From an uncultured Bdellovibrionales bacterium (GTDB lineage Bacteria > Patescibacteriota > Minisyncoccia > Moranbacterales > UBA1568): a DNA stretch of 64,000 nucleotides. The DNA is taken from contig CAYLJX010000004.1 in assembly GCA_964384235.1 (NCBI GenBank), forward strand, positions 15,916 to 79,915. The letters run 5' to 3'. This document shows, piece after piece, positions 9,518-52,469 of the stretch. Every line of letters starts with the position of its first letter. The first letter of the stretch is position 1. A program made the position numbers and the translations under genes. Under the pieces are notes generated by a model that ran no database searches, was not told where the DNA came from, and saw only the letters and a program-made list of their open reading frames with translations.

Positions 9518-9601
9518 AGACGTATTCGTTACAGGTTAACAGGAAGTCCCTCCTTCCACTCCCATATCATACTCTTTTTCCGAACCACCCGCAAGATGGG
9601 T

Positions 9602-10537
9602 TTACGGCGAGACCGTTTCCGGCATATCCCCCATCCTTCGACGCGACAGCCAGAAAAAATAACCGATGATGGCGATGGTTACAAGAGGCGAAAACCATTC
9701 CGGCACATGGTATCCGAAGCCTCCGGAAATCATCACCGCGCCGAGAATAAGGATCGAATACATGGCGCCGTTCTTGAGATAGGCGTAGCGCTTGACGCGC
9801 TCGATATTGGAGACGGTGAGCTGCCGCACCACGATCGCCCCGATGCCGTTCCCGAGAAGGATGAGCGGGACCGAGAGCGTGAAGGCGAAGGCCCCGAGCA
9901 CTCCGTCGATGGAGAAGCTCATATCGATGACTTCCAAGTAGAGGATCTTGCTCACATCGGAGAGATGGCTGTTGTGTACCATCTTCTGTTCCGCTTCCTC
10001 GGCGTGCTGACGGAAACCATGCGTGATGAAGAAAGCCGTCGAACCCACCACGGCCCCGAACGCGAGCATGGGATCGATCTTCATGGCAAACCAGACGATG
10101 ACCGAAAGTGCCACCGAGACGATGGCATAAAACCAGGCGCCCTGCTCGATGAAGAAGCATTCGGCCCGCAGTCCGATCTTCTTGGGCTCGAGAAAGAGCC
10201 AGTGGAGGAACAGGAAGAGGAGGAAGATACCGCCCCCCATGAGGAGGATCGGCGCGGAAGACTGGATAATCGCCGAGACATAGGGATCGTTGGAAAACGT
10301 GGCCGTGAGCGATCCGAACAATCCGAGCTCCGGCGCCGTCGCAAAGACGATGACCCATGGCAGAACGCCGCGCACCAGAAAGACCGCGAAGAAGATTCCC
10401 CACGTCAGGAAGAACCGCCGTGCCTTCTCCCCCATGGTGGAGAGCACTTCGGCGTTGATGACGGCGTTGTCGATGCTCGAGACCGTCTCAAAGAGGATCA
10501 GTCCCAGCACGATGAGTATCATTGAAAAGACATCCAT
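9602..10537 (-). CDS. DUF475/TerC-like integral membrane protein
   Basis: 311 aa with multiple TM helices. The N-terminal ILFETVSSIDNAVINA pattern is typical of the DUF475/TerC superfamily. Frame-shifted and antisense overlapping ORFs (9567-10403 minus, 9596-10525 plus) are judged spurious. Confidence 0.6.
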   Translation of the reverse strand: MDVFSMILIVLGLILFETVSSIDNAVINAEVLSTMGEKARRFFLTWGIFFAVFLVRGVLPWVIVFATAPELGLFGSLTATFSNDPYVSAIIQSSAPILLMGGGIFLLFLFLHWLFLEPKKIGLRAECFFIEQGAWFYAIVSVALSVIVWFAMKIDPMLAFGAVVGSTAFFITHGFRQHAEEAEQKMVHNSHLSDVSKILYLEVIDMSFSIDGVLGAFAFTLSVPLILLGNGIGAIVVRQLTVSNIERVKRYAYLKNGAMYSILILGAVMISGGFGYHVPEWFSPLVTIAIIGYFFWLSRRRMGDMPETVSP

Positions 10538-10540
10538 TCT

Positions 10541-10640
10541 GAAGAATCAGGAATTACGAATCATGAATCAAGAATAGACAAACAAGGGAAGAAATGCAAT
10601 TCCTCGCTCTTGATTCTCAATTCTTGATTCTTTATTCTGC
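10541..10640. repeat. inverted pair of 7-bp tandem-repeat arrays: (NNNGAAT)x5 at 10541-10577, 26-bp spacer, (ATTCNNN)x4-5 at 10604-10640
   Basis: Read directly from the sequence: gaagaat caggaat tacgaat catgaat caagaat ... ctcttg attctca attcttg attcttt attctgc. The element fills the gap between the murF stop and the DUF475 start. Confidence 0.6.
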
Positions 10641-10641
10641 T

Positions 10642-11949
10642 TTACTCAGTCCACTCGGCAGGCGGTACGAAGGGTTTCTTCCGCCATTCTTCCGTCTGTC
10701 GGCAGAGCAGAGCCGGCGCCTCTTTCGGATTGATGAGCAGCTGTTCGACGATCGTCTCCATGCGGAGTCCCTGCGAACCCTTGATGAGGATGAGGTCTTC
10801 CGGATGCACGATGTGGAGAAGCATCTGGATCGCCGAGAGCGGATCGGGAAGCCACAGGACCTGGAGCGGCGGAAAACCGGATGTCATGAGGGCGTCATAC
10901 AGCGCCCGACTGTGTTTGCCCACCGTCACCACCATATGAGCCCCGGAACCGAGGACGGCATCCTTGAGGGCGGCATGTTCCCGATCGGAGTCGGGGCCGA
11001 GCTCCAGCATATCCCCCAAAACTGCGATCTTGCGCGGAGCGGACAGTTCCCGAAGCGTTTCGAGAGCAGCGACTGTCGATACCGGCGAGGCGTTGTACGT
11101 ATCGTCGATCAGGATGGTACCTTCCCTTCCCGGCAAGAGCCGCAACCGTCCCGGGAGCGGTTCGAAGCGCTCCAATGTTCCGGCGATCTCGACCAGGTTC
11201 ATCTTGAGCGCGAGTCCCACGGACACCGCCGAGAGCGCCGCCGGGATATGATGACGTGCGATGAGCTTCGGCAGACGAAGCGGAATCGTCTTGCCGTCGA
11301 AGTTGAGCTTCAGACTGTACCCTTCGACCCGCTTGGCTTCTCGATGAAAAAGAATGTTATCCGCCCGTACTGCCGCACCCTCGGAAAATCCGTACGACAG
11401 CACTTTGGCCTTGGTCTTCTCCGCCATCTTCAGCGTACGCTTGTCATCCGCGTTCACGACAGCGAACCCGTCTTCTGGAAGTCCGACGATCAGGCGTCCT
11501 TTTTCTTTGGCGATATTGGTGATCGATCCGAAAAATTCCATGTGGCTCGACGACACCCCCGTCGCGACACCGACCTTCACCGGCACGAACGACAGGAGAT
11601 AGTCCATATCTCCCGGCCGATCGATTCCCATTTCCAGTACCAGTACCTGGGGATACCGCGTCGGAACCAGCATGAGCCAGAGGAAACGGAAACCCACTCC
11701 CGCCCAGCGAAAGAGGGAACTATTGCCGCTCCTGGCACCCAGGATAGTGAGCGGGATACCGACCTCGTTGTTGTAGTTCCCTTCGGATTTCCGGACATGG
11801 AACTGCGAAGAGAGCACGAGCGCGATCGCTTCCTTGGTCGAGCTTTTTCCCACCGAACCGGTCACTCCCACCACAAGCGGCTCATATTTCCGGAGTACCG
11901 CCTGGGCCATGAAGCGCAGGATCTGTTCCAACAGTTTTCTTTTTGTCAT
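10642..11949 (-). CDS. murF: UDP-N-acetylmuramoyl-tripeptide--D-alanyl-D-alanine ligase
   Basis: Mur ligase motifs are present (GVTGSVGKSSTKE, DDTYNASP). The start is placed at ATG 11949 (MTKRKLL...), giving a 4-nt overlap with the ftsI stop. The ORF track's 34-aa extension is unlikely to be real. Confidence 0.85.
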   Translation of the reverse strand: MTKRKLLEQILRFMAQAVLRKYEPLVVGVTGSVGKSSTKEAIALVLSSQFHVRKSEGNYNNEVGIPLTILGARSGNSSLFRWAGVGFRFLWLMLVPTRYPQVLVLEMGIDRPGDMDYLLSFVPVKVGVATGVSSSHMEFFGSITNIAKEKGRLIVGLPEDGFAVVNADDKRTLKMAEKTKAKVLSYGFSEGAAVRADNILFHREAKRVEGYSLKLNFDGKTIPLRLPKLIARHHIPAALSAVSVGLALKMNLVEIAGTLERFEPLPGRLRLLPGREGTILIDDTYNASPVSTVAALETLRELSAPRKIAVLGDMLELGPDSDREHAALKDAVLGSGAHMVVTVGKHSRALYDALMTSGFPPLQVLWLPDPLSAIQMLLHIVHPEDLILIKGSQGLRMETIVEQLLINPKEAPALLCRQTEEWRKKPFVPPAEWTE

Positions 11950-13724
11950 AACGGCTTTTTCTTCACTTCTTCCGTCGGCTGCACCTTGGAATACTCTAAC
12001 AGGAATTTCATGATCTGGCCAAAGGTCGGCGCGGCGCTCGACTCCGCCCATTCCACGTCCTTAGGGTTGTCGATCTTGACCAGGACGACGAACTTCGGAT
12101 CATCGATCGGAGCGTACCCGACGAACGAACCGATCGACACACCCTCCTCATACCCCTTGGCATCGCTCTTGGCTACCTGCGCCGTGCCCGTCTTGCCCCC
12201 GACGAGATATCCCGGCACATCGGCCCGCTTGCCATGGCCGTTCACGACGACGTTCCGGAGCATTTTGCCGATCTTCCGGCTCGTTTCCTCGCTTAAGACC
12301 TGGCGGATCGTCTCCGGTCGCACGTCCTCCACATCGCCGTCCGCATGGACGACACGGCTCACCAGATGGGGGCGCATGAGTCTGCCGCCGTTCGCGAGCG
12401 CCGCATAGGCCGTCACGAGCTGCAGGGGCGTCACCGTGATGCCCTGACCGAACGAGGCGGTGTAGAACTGGATATCACGCCGCGTATCCTCGAGATGGCG
12501 GATATTTCCGGAGAGCTCCGCCGGCAACTGCACGCCGGTCTTCTCACCGAAACCGAAACGTTTGAAATAATTCCTGAAGGCCGTGTTGCCGACGAGCTTT
12601 TCCACATAGATGACACCCGTATTGATGGATTCCTCCAGGACCTTGGTCATCGAGCTTTTCCCATACACCTTGTCTTCCGAGTTACGGATATGGTACCCGC
12701 CGATGCTCACCACGCCCGTATCGACATATTCCGTGTCCGGCGAGACTTTCCCTTCCTCCAGACCGATAGCCATCGTGATCGGCTTGATCACCGAGCCGGG
12801 TTCGTAGGAGAGGCTCACGGCCGGGTTGAGGAAGCGCGAGTAATCCGTCTCCTCGGAATACCGGTTCGGGTCGAACTGCGGCAGGGACGCCATCGAGAGG
12901 ACGTTCCCGGTCCCGGGATCCATGACGATCGCCGTCACCCGGTCGGCCCGGAATTTTTCCAGCGCCTCCTTGAGGATCTTTTCCGTCTCGTACTGGATGA
13001 CCCGGTCGAGCGTCAGTACGAGAGAGTCGCCGTTTTTCGCGCCGACGACCTCCCGGTCGGAAAACGGGATCCAGCGACCGGCCGCATCCTTCTCCTGGGA
13101 GAGTCGCCCGTCCTGCCCCTTGAGCGCGGCATCGAAAGACGTCTCTATGCCGTACCCGCCGGCCCCCCGCTCATCCAGACTCGCGAACCCGATCACCTGC
13201 GAAGCGAGCTCTCCCGCCGGATAATACCGGTACTTCTCGGGAAGAAGCGCCACTCCGCGGAGTCGCAGCTCTTTCACGCGCGACACCTCGTCGTCACTCA
13301 AGCGTTTCTTGACGATCTCGAACGGATCGTCGGGGCGATCGAGTTTCTCCCGGATGGTCCCGGCATCCAAGGAAAGGACCCGGGACAGTTCGATGGCGGT
13401 CCGGTCCTTCTCGGTCACGTCCTTGGGGACGACGTAGACCGTCTCGTACTCGCGATTGATGGCTATAGGATACGTTCCCTCGCTGTCGCGTATGGATATC
13501 TCTCCCCGGTCGGCGATGATGTCCTGAAAGAGGAAATGCTGGTCGCCGGCAAGCGCCGTCCACTTGTCATGCCCGTATACCTGGAGGAAATACAGCCGGA
13601 CCGTGAGTGCCGCTCCGATCAGAAGAAAAAAGACAAAAAAAAGACGAAGTCTCGTCCCTTCCCCTAATGTCCACCCGGATACCGTTTGCGGTTTGGAGCG
13701 TGAGTGAAAGGAGATCTTGCGCAT
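11946..13724 (-). CDS. ftsI: peptidoglycan D,D-transpeptidase (class B PBP, FtsI-like)
   Basis: 592 aa. N-terminal TM segment. Motifs SxxK (GSVIKP) and KTG (GKTGTA) are present. The gene sits at the ftsI position of the division/cell-wall cluster. Confidence 0.85.
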   Translation of the reverse strand: MRKISFHSRSKPQTVSGWTLGEGTRLRLFFVFFLLIGAALTVRLYFLQVYGHDKWTALAGDQHFLFQDIIADRGEISIRDSEGTYPIAINREYETVYVVPKDVTEKDRTAIELSRVLSLDAGTIREKLDRPDDPFEIVKKRLSDDEVSRVKELRLRGVALLPEKYRYYPAGELASQVIGFASLDERGAGGYGIETSFDAALKGQDGRLSQEKDAAGRWIPFSDREVVGAKNGDSLVLTLDRVIQYETEKILKEALEKFRADRVTAIVMDPGTGNVLSMASLPQFDPNRYSEETDYSRFLNPAVSLSYEPGSVIKPITMAIGLEEGKVSPDTEYVDTGVVSIGGYHIRNSEDKVYGKSSMTKVLEESINTGVIYVEKLVGNTAFRNYFKRFGFGEKTGVQLPAELSGNIRHLEDTRRDIQFYTASFGQGITVTPLQLVTAYAALANGGRLMRPHLVSRVVHADGDVEDVRPETIRQVLSEETSRKIGKMLRNVVVNGHGKRADVPGYLVGGKTGTAQVAKSDAKGYEEGVSIGSFVGYAPIDDPKFVVLVKIDNPKDVEWAESSAAPTFGQIMKFLLEYSKVQPTEEVKKKPL

Positions 13725-15180: not shown

Positions 15181-15290
15181 CAAAACTCAAAAGTCAAAAG
15201 AAATGTCACGCCTGAAAACTTTTTTCACTTTTGATTTTTGACTTGTACTTGTCTTTCGGTTTTCCCTGTTGCCTATCGCCTACTGCCTAT
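15181..15290. repeat. inverted heptamer arrays (CAAAAGT)x3 at 15181-15201, 18-bp spacer, (ACTTTTG-type)x4 at 15227-15254, then (YGCCTAY)x3 at 15270-15290
   Basis: Read directly from the sequence. The arrays fill the mraZ-rsmH intergenic gap, which is normally very short. Confidence 0.55.
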
Positions 15291-15300
15291 ATTTCCTGTC

Positions 15301-20847: not shown

Positions 20848-20859
20848 ATGATTGAAGAA

Positions 20860-20887
20860 GTGAGTAGTGGGTAGTTGGTAGTGAGTA
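20860..20887. repeat. tandem heptamer array (GTKRGTA)x4: gtgagta gtgggta gttggta gtgagta
   Basis: Read directly from the sequence, 13 nt upstream of the xth start codon. Confidence 0.5.
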
Positions 20888-20926
20888 GTCTATGAAAACC
20901 AAGGGGGCATTCCCATTGTAGCGGCA

Positions 20927-27019: not shown

Positions 27020-27101
27020 TTTGTTTTTCCTCCTTTTTTTCCTTCTTATTGTATCATACCCTCCCCTTCATCCTCTCGTCTCCCCTCTCCTCCCTCCTCA
27101 T

Positions 27102-27129
27102 TCCTGTCTCCTACTTCCTATCTCCTACC
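27102..27129. repeat. tandem heptamer array (TCCTRYY)x4: tcctgtc tcctact tcctatc tcctacc
   Basis: Read directly from the sequence. Overlaps the 3-prime end of gene 27125-28531. Preceded by a CT-rich tract (27061-27100). Confidence 0.45.
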
Positions 27130-29157: not shown

Positions 29158-30567
29158 TCAATTGGGAGTCATCTGGATATTTTCCGTCACCAAGGCACTA
29201 CCGACACCGACGGTCTTCGTCTCGGTACCGAATCCCGAAGCGGTCACCTCGACATCGTATGAACCGTTGACCAGGGCCGGGAGCGACGTCGGGAAATACG
29301 CGATACCGTACTGGTCCGTCGTGACCGTCGCATCATATGGGACGGACGTATTGGTCAGCCGGACGCTCGCCCCGGAAACGGGAGAATCGTCCGCCGAGCT
29401 CTTCACCGTCACCTTCACGGAACCGATGTTCTTGTCGAGGAGGATCGCTTCCATCGTGCCGGACGATCCCGGGACGAGATCCATGACATCGGCCGTCGAC
29501 GATGTTTCCGGATGCATCTTGTAAAACTCGTAATCAGCGTCGGAAACGGTCAGCGTATACTGACCGTAACTCTGGTCGGAGTAGGTCTTCTCGCCGGAGC
29601 TGTCCGTGGTTGACGTATCGGAAAAACCATAGACGTTCGCTCCGGTACCCGCATCCGTCCCAAGGACCCGGCCGCCGGAGAGCGTGAAGCCGATATCCGG
29701 GACATCCGTACCGAACGGATCCTTGGTCCGGAGCGGGATATCGACGTTTTGGTCCATGACGATCGTCTTCTGATTGAGGGTAGCTTCCACGACCGAGGCA
29801 TGAACATCGACCGGGTTGTACGCGGACGTCGGATAGGACGCGTATGTGGTCGCACCGTAATAGCCGCCCTTGGAAACGGTGAGAGTATAGGCTTCGACAC
29901 CGGCCGGCGCACCGGGAAGCATCACGTTGCCGGTCGAATCGGTCGTGGCGGTCGTGTCGATGCTCGCACCCGAATTGACGATGCGCACGCTCGCGCCCGA
30001 TACCCCGCTCCCGGTCGCATCCAGGACATTGATGGAAAGCGTCCCGCCGCCGCCGGACGTCTCCACGCCGTTGGGAGAGAAATTTCCGAAGATGACGACT
30101 TTCTGGTCATCCCCTCCCCCTCCCCACTCGACCGTGAGGCGGACGCGCTTATAATCGGTCGAAACCGTGTCATTGGGCGAGCCGCCGATCGTTCCGTCGA
30201 ACGAGTCGTCGACGTACTGCACGAAGGTATGCACGTCGTATCTCACCGTGTTGACACTGATCGTCTCGTCCTCCAGGAGTTCGCCGCCCGGGATACCATA
30301 GAGCCACGCCGACCCGTTCCAGCGCTTGGTACCGATGTCGTCATAGGCGATGCTCCGGATGATCTCCATCTTCTGGTTAGCGAGAGCCGTCGCGCCGAGA
30401 CGGTTCTTGGACTCGATGATCATACGCGTCCCCGTAGCATACACCTGAAAGAAGACCACCCCAATCAGAGCGAAGATGAACAGGAAAACGAGGGATTCAA
30501 TCAGGGTGAAGCCCTTTAACTTTGTATCTTGTATTTTGTATCTTGTATTTTGTATTGAAGAATTCAT
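29158..30567 (-). CDS. large prepilin-type protein (about 470 aa)
   Basis: The start is placed at ATG 30567 with leader MNSSIQNTRYKIQDTKLKG, then FTLIESLVFLFIFALIGVV. The GGAG RBS is about 10 nt upstream. The ORF track start at 30588 is less likely. Confidence 0.7.
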   Translation of the reverse strand: MNSSIQNTRYKIQDTKLKGFTLIESLVFLFIFALIGVVFFQVYATGTRMIIESKNRLGATALANQKMEIIRSIAYDDIGTKRWNGSAWLYGIPGGELLEDETISVNTVRYDVHTFVQYVDDSFDGTIGGSPNDTVSTDYKRVRLTVEWGGGGDDQKVVIFGNFSPNGVETSGGGGTLSINVLDATGSGVSGASVRIVNSGASIDTTATTDSTGNVMLPGAPAGVEAYTLTVSKGGYYGATTYASYPTSAYNPVDVHASVVEATLNQKTIVMDQNVDIPLRTKDPFGTDVPDIGFTLSGGRVLGTDAGTGANVYGFSDTSTTDSSGEKTYSDQSYGQYTLTVSDADYEFYKMHPETSSTADVMDLVPGSSGTMEAILLDKNIGSVKVTVKSSADDSPVSGASVRLTNTSVPYDATVTTDQYGIAYFPTSLPALVNGSYDVEVTASGFGTETKTVGVGSALVTENIQMTPN

Positions 30568-30618
30568 AAAAGTCCGTCTCCGCATCATACGAGATACTTG
30601 ATACAGGATACGAAATAC
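30522..30618. repeat. inverted heptamer arrays: (TTGTATY)x5 at 30522-30556, 34-bp spacer, (NNGATAC)x4 at 30591-30618
   Basis: Read directly from the sequence. The first array encodes the prepilin leader residues IQNTRYKIQDTK. The second lies immediately after the pilC stop. The spacer holds the pilin RBS and ATG. Confidence 0.55.
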
Positions 30619-31859: not shown

Positions 31860-31900
31860 TTGTGTGATTCCATTATATCACACACGCCGGTTCCCTTGTC
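31860..31900 (-). promoter_or_regulatory. candidate pil promoter: extended -10 TGATATAAT (plus coords 31871-31879 as attatatca) overlapped by inverted repeat gtgtgat/atcacac
   Basis: The -10 is seen on the minus strand 25-35 nt upstream of the pilC ATG. The 7-bp inverted repeat 31861-31867 and 31877-31883 flanks it. Confidence 0.4.
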
Positions 31901-31917
31901 TCTTGTCGTTTGATCCC

Positions 31918-32841: not shown

Positions 32842-32845
32842 AAGA

Positions 32846-32933
32846 GAGGCAATAGGCAGAAGGCAGAAGGCGGTCCAGAAAGAGCATTCTTATCTCATCC
32901 CTACTGCCTCAGTATCTATTGCCTACTGCCTAT
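32846..32933. repeat. inverted heptamer arrays: (NAGGCRR)x4 at 32846-32873, 28-bp spacer, (TGCCTNN) units at 32902-32933
   Basis: gaggcaa taggcag aaggcag aaggcgg ... tgcctca ... tgcctac tgcctat. The element fills the gap between the uvrA stop and the NTase start. It shares the gcctactgcctat 13-mer with 15278-15290. Confidence 0.5.
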
Positions 32934-35828: not shown

Positions 35829-37166
35829 CTACCGCAGGAATTCCTTACCGCGACGGCGGCGATGAAAGACGATGGCAAAACGGTGGGCTTCGCCGTTCGC
35901 GAGGAGGATGTCTTTTTTGAAACGCTTGACGAGCGACTGGTCGCCGACGAAACTTTTCGGCTGGTGTCGCTCGTCCTTGACGACACCGAGCACGGGAATG
36001 GTGAGGTGCACTTGTCGCAGGACCGAGAGCGCGACGCTCCGCTGCAGTTCCCCTCCGTCTACCACTATCATATCCGGAAGCGACCATTCGGTATGCCCGA
36101 GACGCCGCGTGAGGATTTCCCTGAGAGCCGTGAGGTCGTTTCCTTGGTGATCGCCTCGCAGACGGAATTGCCGATATTCGTCCTTGTCCGGTCGACTCCC
36201 CTCCACTACTGTCATGACCCCGACGCTCGCCACTCCCTGGAGATGTGCCACGTCATACGCCTCAATCCGAATTCTTGATTCTTGATTCTCAATTCTTGAT
36301 TCTTCCTTGATGAGCGCTATATCCTGGATATGTTGCAACCCGTAGAGGGTGTTGCGAAGCTCGGCCGCCCGTTCGAATTCCATCGCCTTCGCCGCCGCCT
36401 TCATTTCCCGCTCGAGACCCTTCACGAGTTTCTGCTTGTGCCCCTCGAAGAAGAGTCGGATATGCTGGATGGTCCGGCCGTACTCCCGTACGCTCACCTC
36501 TCCCGTACACACCCCGGGACACAGTCCGATCTGCCTGTTGAAACACGGGCGCACGCCTGTGTCCCGGACTCGATCCGGGACCCTCCCGTTACCACGAGAT
36601 CCCGAATCGCGCTTCGCTTGTCCGGGATGCTTCGCCGTTCTTTCGAACGGCTCGCATTTGTCCCTATACGGAAACAGTTTTCGCACGATCTTCATCGCCT
36701 CTTTCAGTCCCAGTCCCGAGAGGAACGGACCGAACATGTATTTCACTTTCGCGTCGAACTTCCCCTGCTCGATGTCTCGGCCGCGAACGATGAGCACCCG
36801 CGGGAACGGCTCGTCCGTGATGACGACATGGTTGTAGCTCTTGTCGTCCTTGGCGTCGGTGTTGTAGGGCGGCTGATGCTCCTTGATGAGACGCGATTCG
36901 AGGATGAGCGCCTCAAGGACCGAATCGGTCTGCCGGTAGGCGATGTACGAGACCTTGGGCAGCATGAGCGCGATCTTGGGGCCTCTCGTCTCCATCAGGT
37001 CGCTTGCGAAATAGCTCCGCACCCGGTCGCGCAAGGACGTCGCCTTGCCGATATAGAGGAGCGTTTTGGTCTCATCCAGGAAGAAGTACACCCCTGGATG
37101 CTCCGGCAGGGCGTTCTTCTTCTGAAACGACAGAAGCGTATGCGATTTTTCCCACAGTGTAGCCAT
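35829..37166 (-). CDS. uvrC: excinuclease ABC subunit C (short form, no C-terminal HhH pair evident)
   Basis: GIY-YIG motif (GVYFFLDE...[13 protein letters not shown]), UvrBC-interaction region and endonuclease domain. The start is placed at ATG 37166 (MATLWEK...). The ORF track's 24-aa extension would overlap the divergent gene. Confidence 0.8.
36271..36305. repeat. tandem heptamer array (ATTCTTG)x5 embedded in frame in uvrC coding sequence
   Basis: attcttg attcttg attctca attcttg attcttc on the plus strand encodes ...[16 protein letters not shown]... in UvrC. It is the same unit family as the 10541-10640 intergenic element. Confidence 0.5.
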
Positions 37167-42640: not shown

Positions 42641-42994
42641 TCAGCCCTCCTGCGGTTTGGCGGCCGGCTTGGTAGGCTTCTTGACCGGCTTGTCGGCCAC
42701 TGTCGTCTTGACCGGCTTGTCGGCCACTGTCGTCTTGGCCGGCTTGGTAGGCTGGGTCGCCGGAGGGGGGACCGGCTTCTCCGCGGCTGCCTCCTGCGCG
42801 TCCTTGGCTTCCCGCTTCGCGGCGTGCTTGTCCAGCACGTCAGCGGATCCACTGGCAGCCTTGGCGCCGACCCGGGCCATGTCCGCCGACAGACTCATCA
42901 TGCTGGCACAGCCGCCGAGACCAAGGGAAATGACTGTCACCGCAAGAACGGTAAGAACTTTGTTCACGATAAACCCCCTTCGTAAAAAACGCAC
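42641..42994 (-). CDS. lipoprotein with proline/lysine-rich repetitive C-terminus
   Basis: Signal peptide plus lipobox LGLGGC. Carries the tandem KTTVADKPV repeat. Confidence 0.6.
   Translation of the reverse strand: MRFLRRGFIVNKVLTVLAVTVISLGLGGCASMMSLSADMARVGAKAASGSADVLDKHAAKREAKDAQEAAAEKPVPPPATQPTKPAKTTVADKPVKTTVADKPVKKPTKPAAKPQEG
42681..42746. repeat. exact 27-bp tandem duplication (ttgaccggcttgtcggccactgtcgtc x2) plus partial third copy inside the lipoprotein gene
   Basis: Copies at 42681-42707 and 42708-42734 are identical, followed by the partial ttggccggcttg. Confidence 0.7.
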
Positions 42995-46430: not shown

Positions 46431-46524
46431 GAGATATGAGGTATATGAGATAGGAGATATGAAATCCGTATTGCATCAGACGATGACGAACGAAACGGTG
46501 ACGAGGTCGCCGTCGGAAAATAAG

Positions 46525-47216: not shown

Positions 47217-47265
47217 AGATGATAAGGAGTAAGAGACAAGGGACAAGTAACAAGAAAAGGGGGAG

Positions 47266-51863: not shown

Positions 51864-52469
51864 ATGACCAAAGACAACAATCCACAATCCGAGGTGAAGC
51901 CTCTCCTTGAAAGAGTGGCGCTCGGGGCACCGAAATATGTCGGGTCGCCTGTTTCGCTCGTCCTCCACACGATCTTCTTCGTGGGGATTTTCGGCTTGCA
52001 GTTCGTCGGCTTCGGCTTCGACCAGATCATGCTCATCCTCACCACGGTCGTCTCGCTCGAGGCCATCTACCTCTCCATCTTCATCCAGATGACGGTCAAC
52101 CACCAGGCCAAGCAGATCGAGGAAGTGAGCGAGGACGTCGAGGAGATCAGCGAGGACGTGGAAGGCATCTCTGAGGACGTCGAGGAAATTTCCAAGGACA
52201 TTGATGACATCCAGGAGGACGTGGAGGACATTTCGGAAGACGTGGAAGAGATTTCCAAGGACATTGATGACATCCAGGAGGACGTCAAGGAAATCGGTGA
52301 GGACGTGGAGGAAATATCGGAAGACGTGGAAGATATCGGCGAGGAAATCGAAAAGGATGACAAGGAGTATACCGCCGACCGCACGCAGGACGTCCAAAAG
52401 ATCCAAAAAATCGAGGGCGTCCTCGAAGAGCTTCTGAAAGAGATCAGGGAGATGAAGGTACGCAAGTAG
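51864..52469 (+). CDS. DUF1003-family membrane protein with C-terminal acidic heptad-repeat tail
   Basis: The N-terminal two-TM core with LILTTVVSLEAIYLSIFIQMTVNHQ matches the DUF1003 pattern. The C-terminus carries (SEDVEEI)-type 7-aa repeats x11. Confidence 0.65.
   Translation: MTKDNNPQSEVKPLLERVALGAPKYVGSPVSLVLHTIFFVGIFGLQFVGFGFDQIMLILTTVVSLEAIYLSIFIQMTVNHQAKQIEEVSEDVEEISEDVEGISEDVEEISKDIDDIQEDVEDISEDVEEISKDIDDIQEDVKEIGEDVEEISEDVEDIGEEIEKDDKEYTADRTQDVQKIQKIEGVLEELLKEIREMKVRK
52118..52355. repeat. 21-bp (7-codon) tandem repeat x11 with a 63-bp higher-order duplication, inside gene 51864-52469
   Basis: EEVSEDV EEISEDV EGISEDV EEISKDI DDIQEDV ... The 35-nt string atttccaaggacattgatgacatccaggaggacgt occurs at both 52187-52221 and 52250-52284. 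Confidence 0.75.

Follow-up and report, generated by a model that had tools for sequence, protein, structure and literature searches.

We analysed the gap between murF and a gene for a DUF475/TerC-family membrane protein in a 64-kb stretch of contig CAYLJX010000004.1, here called the window (coordinates are those of the window unless another genome is named). The host belongs to the Patescibacteria of Moranbacteria type, and a gene map built with a codon-usage model and Pfam checks places about 52 of the window's 59 modelled genes on the minus strand. murF (10642–11949, minus strand) encodes Mur_ligase_M and Mur_ligase_C domains, and the DUF475 gene (9602–10537, minus strand), recognised by its Pfam domain, lies downstream of it in the same orientation. 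The murF stop codon (TAA, 10642–10644, minus strand; TTA on the plus strand) and the DUF475 start codon (ATG, 10535–10537, minus strand; CAT on the plus strand) enclose a gap of 104 nt, which is filled by two inverted arrays of heptads.

On the mRNA strand the first half of the gap reads TAA AGCA GAATAAA GAATCAA GAATTGA GAATCAA GAGCGAG GAATTGC, followed by ATTTCTTCCCTTGTTTGTCT and then by ATTCTTG ATTCATG ATTCGTA ATTCCTG ATTCTTC AGA ATG. The units from GAATAAA to GAATTGC form the stop-proximal (5′) arm (10596–10637, minus strand), which begins 4 nt past the murF stop. The start-proximal (3′) arm (10541–10575, minus strand) is made of five ATTCNNN heptads, stands 3 bases (10538–10540) before the DUF475 ATG, is G-poor and carries no Shine-Dalgarno (SD) motif. 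The inter-arm segment (10576–10595, minus strand) is a degenerate extension of the 3′ arm and, in the predicted fold described below, pairs with the inner heptads of the 5′ arm. Seen on the plus strand, 10541–10575 reads GAAGAAT CAGGAAT TACGAAT CATGAAT CAAGAAT, five NNNGAAT heptads, and 10599–10640 reads ATTCCTC GCTCTTG ATTCTCA ATTCTTG ATTCTTT ATTCTGC, five ATTCNNN heptads and one degenerate unit that together end one base short of the murF stop codon. A preliminary description of this DNA had counted five GAAT heptamers upstream of the DUF475 ATG and four or five ATTC heptamers at the end of murF. The first array is confirmed, with the earlier coordinates and counts right to within 1–2 bases, and the second holds five ATTC units plus the degenerate one.

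The pattern GAATN3GAATN3GAAT, with at most one mismatch, occurs nine times in the window against 0.55 expected, and none of 100 shuffles reached nine. All nine matches fall in the murF-DUF475 gap or in uvrC (36264–36302), and nowhere else. Tandem Repeats Finder (TRF) reports period-7 arrays at 10542–10575 and 10608–10638 with 4.9 and 4.4 copies and 77–80% matches, and in the gap arms four columns stay invariant over at least four units. The element is securely identified as a heptanucleotide array pair of a known intergenic type.

Other identities for the gap were considered. Rfam returned no family at the gathering threshold across the whole window, nor at E-values up to 10 for 10450–10750; the relaxed search gave weak microRNA-precursor models only, which reflect the hairpin shape. 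The yybP-ykoY (Mn2+) riboswitch, often found ahead of TerC-family genes, was rejected since it matched neither at gathering score nor at E up to 10, and no transfer RNA or transfer-messenger RNA was found. Recognition sites for GANTC (GAATC/GATTC) methylation or restriction show neither avoidance nor excess across the window, at 213 sites against about 242 expected. A small leader open reading frame (ORF), MIRNS* in the window and MMRNS* in the related locus L013, is not kept in L005 or L018, and such frames are a by-product because the heptads contain TGA. Nor is the missing SD a peculiarity of DUF475, because an SD-like motif precedes no more than about 21 of 61 genes.

A miniature mobile element, either a miniature inverted-repeat transposable element or one resembling repetitive extragenic palindromic (REP) sequences, or an intrinsic murF terminator would fit the inverted ends of the element, its intergenic place and its absence from some relatives. 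However, the inter-arm sequence is unique in the window, where nothing but the heptad unit is found again; the flanks carry no target-site duplication, and the arms are arrays and not a defined terminal repeat. No terminator was called in the gap, where the stem is rich in A+T and is followed by GUAAUUCC, so that a G+C-rich stem with a T-run is lacking. There is also no Rfam match, and we regard both identities as highly improbable.

The same gap in related genomes

In a species-representative genome collection without the window's own genome, the best DUF475 match is 79% identical. Inverted GAAT/ATTC arrays with other variable bases and spacers occupy the same junction in L005 (88–89% DUF475 identity) and in L013, L016 and L018 (75–79%), where the gap measures 116–162 nt; across the five genomes with the inverted pair, the window included, the lengths are 104, 128, 116, 162 and 129 nt. 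L018, like L054–L056, carries in addition a 20-nt G+C-rich hairpin, CCTGCCTGCCGGTAGGCAAG, inside its start-proximal ATTC array (L018, about 2966–2985). Inverted heptads of a different unit are found in L051 (AAGAT/ATCTT type) and L010 (AAAATG/CATTTT type). Six further relatives (L006, L008, L015, L021, L023 and L042) have a gap of only 9–19 nt and no arrays, which indicates that the element is an expansion of, or insertion into, a formerly tight junction; since these short gaps hold no promoter, co-transcription of murF and DUF475 is implied. At orthologous junctions the GAAT unit is thus kept in some relatives, replaced in others and absent in others.

Alignment of the orthologs shows invariant GAAT and ATTC cores, with variation at the other three heptad positions. 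Four-fold degenerate sites of DUF475 are 37–47% identical between the window and L013, L016 and L018, near saturation (37–59% with L005 included). Units are nevertheless replaced between close relatives: L018 and L051 are 78% identical at four-fold sites yet use different heptads, and L016 and L010 likewise differ in unit. With cores kept where neutral sites are saturated and units exchanged between close genomes, the architecture is more persistent than the sequence.

The gap shows no copy-number polymorphism. Its sequence is identical in five independent assemblies of the strain (the window and four others), and the four L018-type assemblies likewise agree. This bears on the idea of a contingency locus, in which heptad gain and loss would switch or tune DUF475 expression within a population by phase variation. 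The repeat class is that found at hmw of Haemophilus influenzae and gap length does vary between species, as would suit such a locus, but besides the identity of the assemblies, DUF475 is a housekeeping-type membrane protein and not a surface antigen, and the arrays are poorly mutable because they are imperfect. We give phase variation at this gap very little credence.

Control at the level of DNA is a further alternative. A weak internal promoter for DUF475 would lie between the arms, the heptads would act as operator-like or UP-element-like sites, for example for a protein that polymerises on 7-bp repeats like the omega repressor discussed below, and the start-proximal arm would be a mere transcribed leader. 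A promoter-like TTGCAT-N17-TATTCT (10571–10599, minus strand) matches 7 of 12 consensus positions, and a relaxed form, TTGNNN-N17-TAT(T/G)CT, holds an equivalent position in the window, L013, L016 and L018: leaving aside the insert of L018, its −10 ends 33–37 nt ahead of the ATG. The hexamers are separated by 17 nt of diverged sequence, and the first heptad of L016 and L018 reads ATGC, losing the ATTC core and retaining TATNCT. A conserved core with variable flanks also resembles protein-binding sites. However, the hexamers match only 7–8 of 12 consensus positions and the promoter scan calls nothing, with no sigma-70-type site of at least 9 of 12 positions in the gap. About 20% of shuffled gaps carry the relaxed pattern by chance, its four carriers are homologous and not independent, and L005 lacks it, while the next gene has a true promoter, with a clear extended −10 that all relatives conserve. 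The window holds at least six unrelated heptad cores, which in a small genome would need as many binding proteins. On balance we judge control by DNA elements to be improbable; the suggestion in the preliminary description that the arms bind a dimeric protein likewise becomes less likely, because so many different heptad cores occur in one genome.

Predicted RNA fold and its interpretation

Folding of the minus-strand RNA of 10530–10650 predicts a structure of −35.4 kcal/mol (z = −3.45), and the gap alone gives −34.4 kcal/mol (z = −4.1); folded as DNA, it is weaker (z = −2.3). The predicted main hairpin (10556–10640, minus strand) is imperfect and has 32 base pairs, with its 5′ side at 10640–10600, its 3′ side at 10593–10556 and the loop UUGCAU (10594–10599) at the centre of symmetry. 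The tail ahead of the AUG (10538–10555), with the two start-nearest heptads (10541–10555), stays outside the main stem. The 26-nt spacer proposed earlier between the arms does not hold up: most of it is degenerate arm continuation that is base-paired in the predicted fold, and the predicted loop is confined to 10594–10599.

RNAalifold recovered 21 arm-to-arm pairs as a consensus of the five orthologous gaps, nearly all of them between invariant GAAT and ATTC cores. A shift of the register by 7 nt, one heptad, stays within 2 kcal/mol of the optimum, and permuting the order of heptads within the arms keeps the stability, so a colinear exact palindrome was rejected. Taken together, these results describe the arms as complementary arrays that zip in several registers, and not as a palindrome tuned base by base.

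We propose, at a probability of about 0.4, that the slippage-derived array pair forms an intercistronic RNA hairpin and leader that affects DUF475 expression. Replication slippage of 7-nt units would have produced the arrays, and template switching between the arms would keep them complementary. murF and DUF475 would be carried on one transcript, as gene order, the lack of a terminator and the short promoterless gaps of relatives suggest. On this RNA the purine-rich arm (GAATCAR unit), 4 nt past the murF stop, may zip onto the G-poor, pyrimidine-rich DUF475 leader, in which the complement of that unit is repeated, to give a register-tolerant, imperfect hairpin of about 30 bp, with some 18 nt before the DUF475 AUG left partly free. 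The hairpin would set DUF475 output from the read-through transcript by one of two routes: ribosomes terminating at murF could open it, giving translational coupling, or a double-strand-specific RNase could cut it, as at the heptamer hairpin of H. influenzae hmw. What matters for function would then be the architecture, with complementary cores of 4 nt repeated every 7 nt, rather than a particular sequence.

Several observations weigh against this proposal. The stem shows no covariation among the five orthologs in RNAalifold: only two pairs are compensatory and the covariation term is +1.32. Permuting heptad order left stability unchanged in five of six pairs tested, with p of about 0.3 for the pair analysed here. 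The four orthologous gaps have z-scores of −1.3, −2.4, +0.6 and −2.6; in L016 the gap does not outdo its shuffles, and the gap of L005 reaches only −1.3. Sense RNA is more stable than antisense in 10 of 13 array pairs, but the bias falls to 7 of 9 after orthologs are collapsed, which is not significant and leaves a weak hint of constraint at the RNA level. The promoter-like pattern between the arms could often leave them on separate RNAs, many relatives do without the element, and no RNase III signature was found among the ORFs of the window. In addition, the same unit inside uvrC and single arrays without a partner indicate that arrays arise where a hairpin function is implausible. The long imperfect hairpin of the preliminary description therefore stands as a prediction of folding energy and of the five-ortholog consensus; covariation lends it nothing, heptad order is irrelevant to it, and in L016 it is at the level of shuffles.

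A GAATCAA/GAATTGA heptad array runs in frame through uvrC (36264–36304, minus strand), which bears out the earlier statement that the gap is the intergenic copy of a unit that is also present in frame there. The array lies in the variable linker joining the UVR and endonuclease domains and is absent from 15 homologs at 65–71% identity; most of these have ..DDIRERHAHRIE.. at the site and are three residues shorter, while P0135 and P0143 carry insertions of their own. Thus, the uvrC array arose in place in a tolerant loop, and the process that makes arrays also acts where neither a hairpin nor a promoter role is plausible.

The main rival of the hairpin proposal is a neutral alternative, in which heptad slippage and template switching in this lineage fill freely varying sequence, the pair in the gap is tolerated filler, and its apparent conservation results from arrays evolving in concert and from a mutational bias towards certain units. 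Two papers (PMC4679880, PMC4692102) summarise reviews according to which heptanucleotides are the most abundant long simple sequence repeats in many prokaryotes and are attributed to polymerase slippage. Arrays also sit within the uvrC linker and, as described below, in leader-peptide codons; the element is missing from many relatives, covariation and colinearity between the arms are lacking, and units turn over between the close relatives L018/L051 and L016/L010. Yet an invariant 4-nt core with three variable positions is not expected from slippage alone, because slippage copies whole units. At given junctions the inverted layout also comes back with new units and does not decay to random sequence, copy number is constant among the five assemblies of the strain and the four of L018 type, and the slight folding bias of the sense strand points the same way. 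We rank this neutral reading second, as somewhat less probable than the hairpin.

Heptad arrays at other loci

A self-match scan of the window at periods 3–15 found no strong arrays except at period 7 and at 14, its multiple. When at least four invariant columns across four units were required, 10 arrays were found at period 7 against 0–2 at periods 5, 6 and 8–11. Loci of relatives show a similar tendency. The 10 arrays use several different units, and particular units are found again at more than one locus. The window has three inverted pairs, the murF gap included, each spanning the interval between a stop codon and the following start codon with the same order of parts: the stop codon, one arm, about 25 nt of spacer, the complementary arm and the start codon.

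The second pair, GTATNNN/ATACAAR (30521–30618, minus strand), joins a T2SSF gene to a large pilin-like gene. Its five GTATNNN units (30584–30618) directly follow the T2SSF-gene stop, its five ATACAAR units (30521–30555) are translated as the prepilin-type leader of the pilin-like gene, and a GGAG and the ATG lie between the arms. The third pair, NTAGGCA/GCCTNNN (32844–32933, minus strand), fills the whole stop-to-ATG gap between uvrA and the next gene: NTAGGCA-type heptads (32898–32933) begin at the uvrA stop, and four GCCTNNN units (32844–32871) end 2 nt before the next ATG.

Single arrays lie directly upstream of start codons or directly downstream of stop codons. An ACTACYC array without G in the mRNA sense (20855–20893) reaches the ATG of an Exo_endo_phos (xth-like) gene, and belongs to the 5′ untranslated region (5′UTR) because a clear terminator hairpin and a TACAAT box precede it. 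Four CATATCT units (46431–46465) stand immediately ahead of a DUF456 gene, and a CTTGTNN array precedes the ATG of a probable ORF at about 47216 (minus strand). GACAAGN arrays occur at two loci (47230–47258 and 31880–31910), a purine-rich NNAGGAG array (27020–27124) lies past a stop codon and ahead of pilM, and a TAGGCA array (15184–15300) lies downstream of mraZ.

Comparison with related genomes reveals that several junctions keep arrays while the unit changes. The mraZ-rsmH junction has them in every genome examined, with TAGGCA units in the window, CTAAT/ATTAG in L008 (5415–5520), ATCAAT/ATTGAT in L010 (5126–5242) and CAGGAAT in L053 (1199–1235) and L056 (846–883). Arrays at the rfbC-rfbB junction also differ in unit between genomes. 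Ahead of the gene that follows uvrA, the window has GCCT heptads, whereas L108 (15068–15102) and L110 (15183–15225) have ATTC heptads; L112 leaves just 6 nt there.

The pilin-like gene has a KGFTLIE prepilin motif and CarboxypepD_reg domains. In all four genomes examined a near-perfect heptad array lies in or across its leader-peptide codons (window, 30521–30567; L108, 17388–17440; L110, 17493–17530; L112, 16970–17006), and unit and peptide differ each time; the four leader sequences are MNSSIQNTRYKIQDTKLKG, MFFRSQHSTFNIQHSIRG, MYHISGVKSPKG and MQTTNYKLQTTNGKG. L108 and L109 have equal heptad counts over the overlapping part of this leader. By its sequence the gene may be a phase-variable pilus or adhesin gene, because one 7-nt unit gained or lost would shift the frame.

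Thus, the same genes keep arrays across genomes while the unit turns over, even within prepilin-type leader codons, and arrays are positioned just past stop codons, just ahead of start codons or over them, and now and then within coding linkers that tolerate them. The murF-DUF475 element is better seen as a member of this genome- and lineage-wide class than as a special device of one junction. A broader proposal would treat heptad arrays as an expression device of SD-poor Patescibacteria that is independent of sequence and conserved in architecture: G-poor arrays would keep starts open, and register-tolerant zipper hairpins, formed with a complementary array directly past the preceding stop codon and opened by terminating ribosomes or by a double-strand-specific RNase, would couple downstream to upstream translation. 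We hold this generalisation to be speculative and rather unlikely.

Known heptamer systems and minor observations

The arrays form a population specific to the Moranbacteria-type lineage and match in kind the intergenic heptamers of Xanthomonas, Nostoc and Beggiatoaceae. Xanthomonas genomes hold about 185 (GGGANTN)n arrays each, with unit positions 1–4 and 6 conserved and mostly four units; 89–93% are intergenic, near the end of the upstream ORF and mostly between co-directional genes, and 70–75 convergent pairs occur per genome, with the single or paired type preserved between species (Rehm et al. 2015, PMC4692102). Both systems have a 7-nt unit with a conserved core of 4–5 nt, arrays of mostly about four units, intergenic placement near the upstream ORF end, mostly between co-directional genes, with few intragenic copies, opposite-strand pairs that could form a stem-loop, and a pair type that is kept while lengths change; GAATC is common to both units. 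In contrast to Xanthomonas, the arrays described here have no G-tract, use several unrelated units per genome, fill the whole stop-to-start gap as pairs and reside in a small-genome Patescibacteria host. A G-quadruplex role was proposed for the Xanthomonas arrays (PMC4692102); it is inapplicable to a unit without a G-tract, and G-quadruplexes cannot account for paired heptamer arrays in general.

In H. influenzae the (ATCTTTC)n array of the hmw1A 5′UTR supplies one side of a functional hairpin that RNase III processes (PMC12721329). The likeness is a heptamer array upstream of a gene as one arm of a long hairpin, which is a prediction in our case. At hmw, however, the repeat is perfect and varies in number and the other arm is a G-rich non-repeat, whereas here both arms are imperfect arrays without length variation.

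TAACTGA repeats of marine Beggiatoaceae and the short tandemly repeated repetitive (STRR)-type heptamers of Nostoc and Calothrix lie just upstream of start codons (PMC4679880; bioRxiv 10.1101/2022.06.06.494920). As at the present loci, they often end 1–3 nt before the ATG, and a role in translation is suspected. They are mostly single direct arrays with one dominant unit per genome, whereas the window has several units, many with a stop-adjacent inverted partner.

The omega repressor of inc18 plasmids such as pSM19035 polymerises on contiguous 7-bp repeats, direct and inverted, around promoters. Contiguity and the two orientations are shared with the arrays studied here, but omega heptads are conserved at all seven positions and come with a cognate ribbon-helix-helix gene, in contrast to the many different cores of the window. 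REP sequences and bacterial interspersed mosaic elements (BIME) are a palindromic family of 20–40 nt dispersed in many copies. They too are hairpin-forming intergenic repeats within operons and can affect mRNA stability, although here only the 7-nt periodic architecture is fixed and no sequence is.

Our literature search found no paper linking Patescibacteria or the candidate phyla radiation with heptamer repeats. Heptamers have so far been proposed to form G-quadruplexes in Xanthomonas, to control translation in Beggiatoaceae and Nostoc and, at one Haemophilus gene, to build a hairpin for RNase III. With small genomes and several non-G-rich units in one stop-to-start layout, the present lineage offers a clean comparative system. 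If the hairpin and coupling proposal is true, it would explain linked expression of neighbouring genes in an organism with few SD sites; if it is wrong, the arrays would be a mutational signature of the replication machinery. The practical consequence for the murF-DUF475 gap itself is modest.

The gap between DUF475 and the following KH-domain (KhpA-like) gene (window, 9518–9601) is a real conserved regulatory region. An extended −10 box, TGnTATnAT, lies directly past the DUF475 stop and is conserved in all relatives (orthologous gaps of L005, L006, L008, L018, L048 and L051), and the leader after it holds a conserved GGAAG...CTTCC hairpin. Upstream of mraZ in L056 (230–409) there are AAGTGGG direct repeats at a 10-nt pitch that resemble MraZ boxes, followed in the 5′UTR by an inverted heptad pair (ACTTACG/TTGTTAG type). 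Strong arrays of inverted heptads are also present in two deltaproteobacterial loci retrieved through DUF475 homology, L028 (4438–4530) and L026 (6657–6742); their units are GAATC-like (CAGAATC and CCGGAAT types) and recall GGGAATC in Xanthomonas.

Very long ORFs run antisense to real genes, for example that at 10594–12408 on the plus strand (604 aa) opposite murF; these are a composition artefact that misleads longest-ORF gene maps of this genome. TRF also reports a 21/42/63/84-nt tandem repeat (52117–52351), acidic and E/D-rich if translated, and 2.5 copies of a 27-nt repeat with 97% identity (42679–42746).

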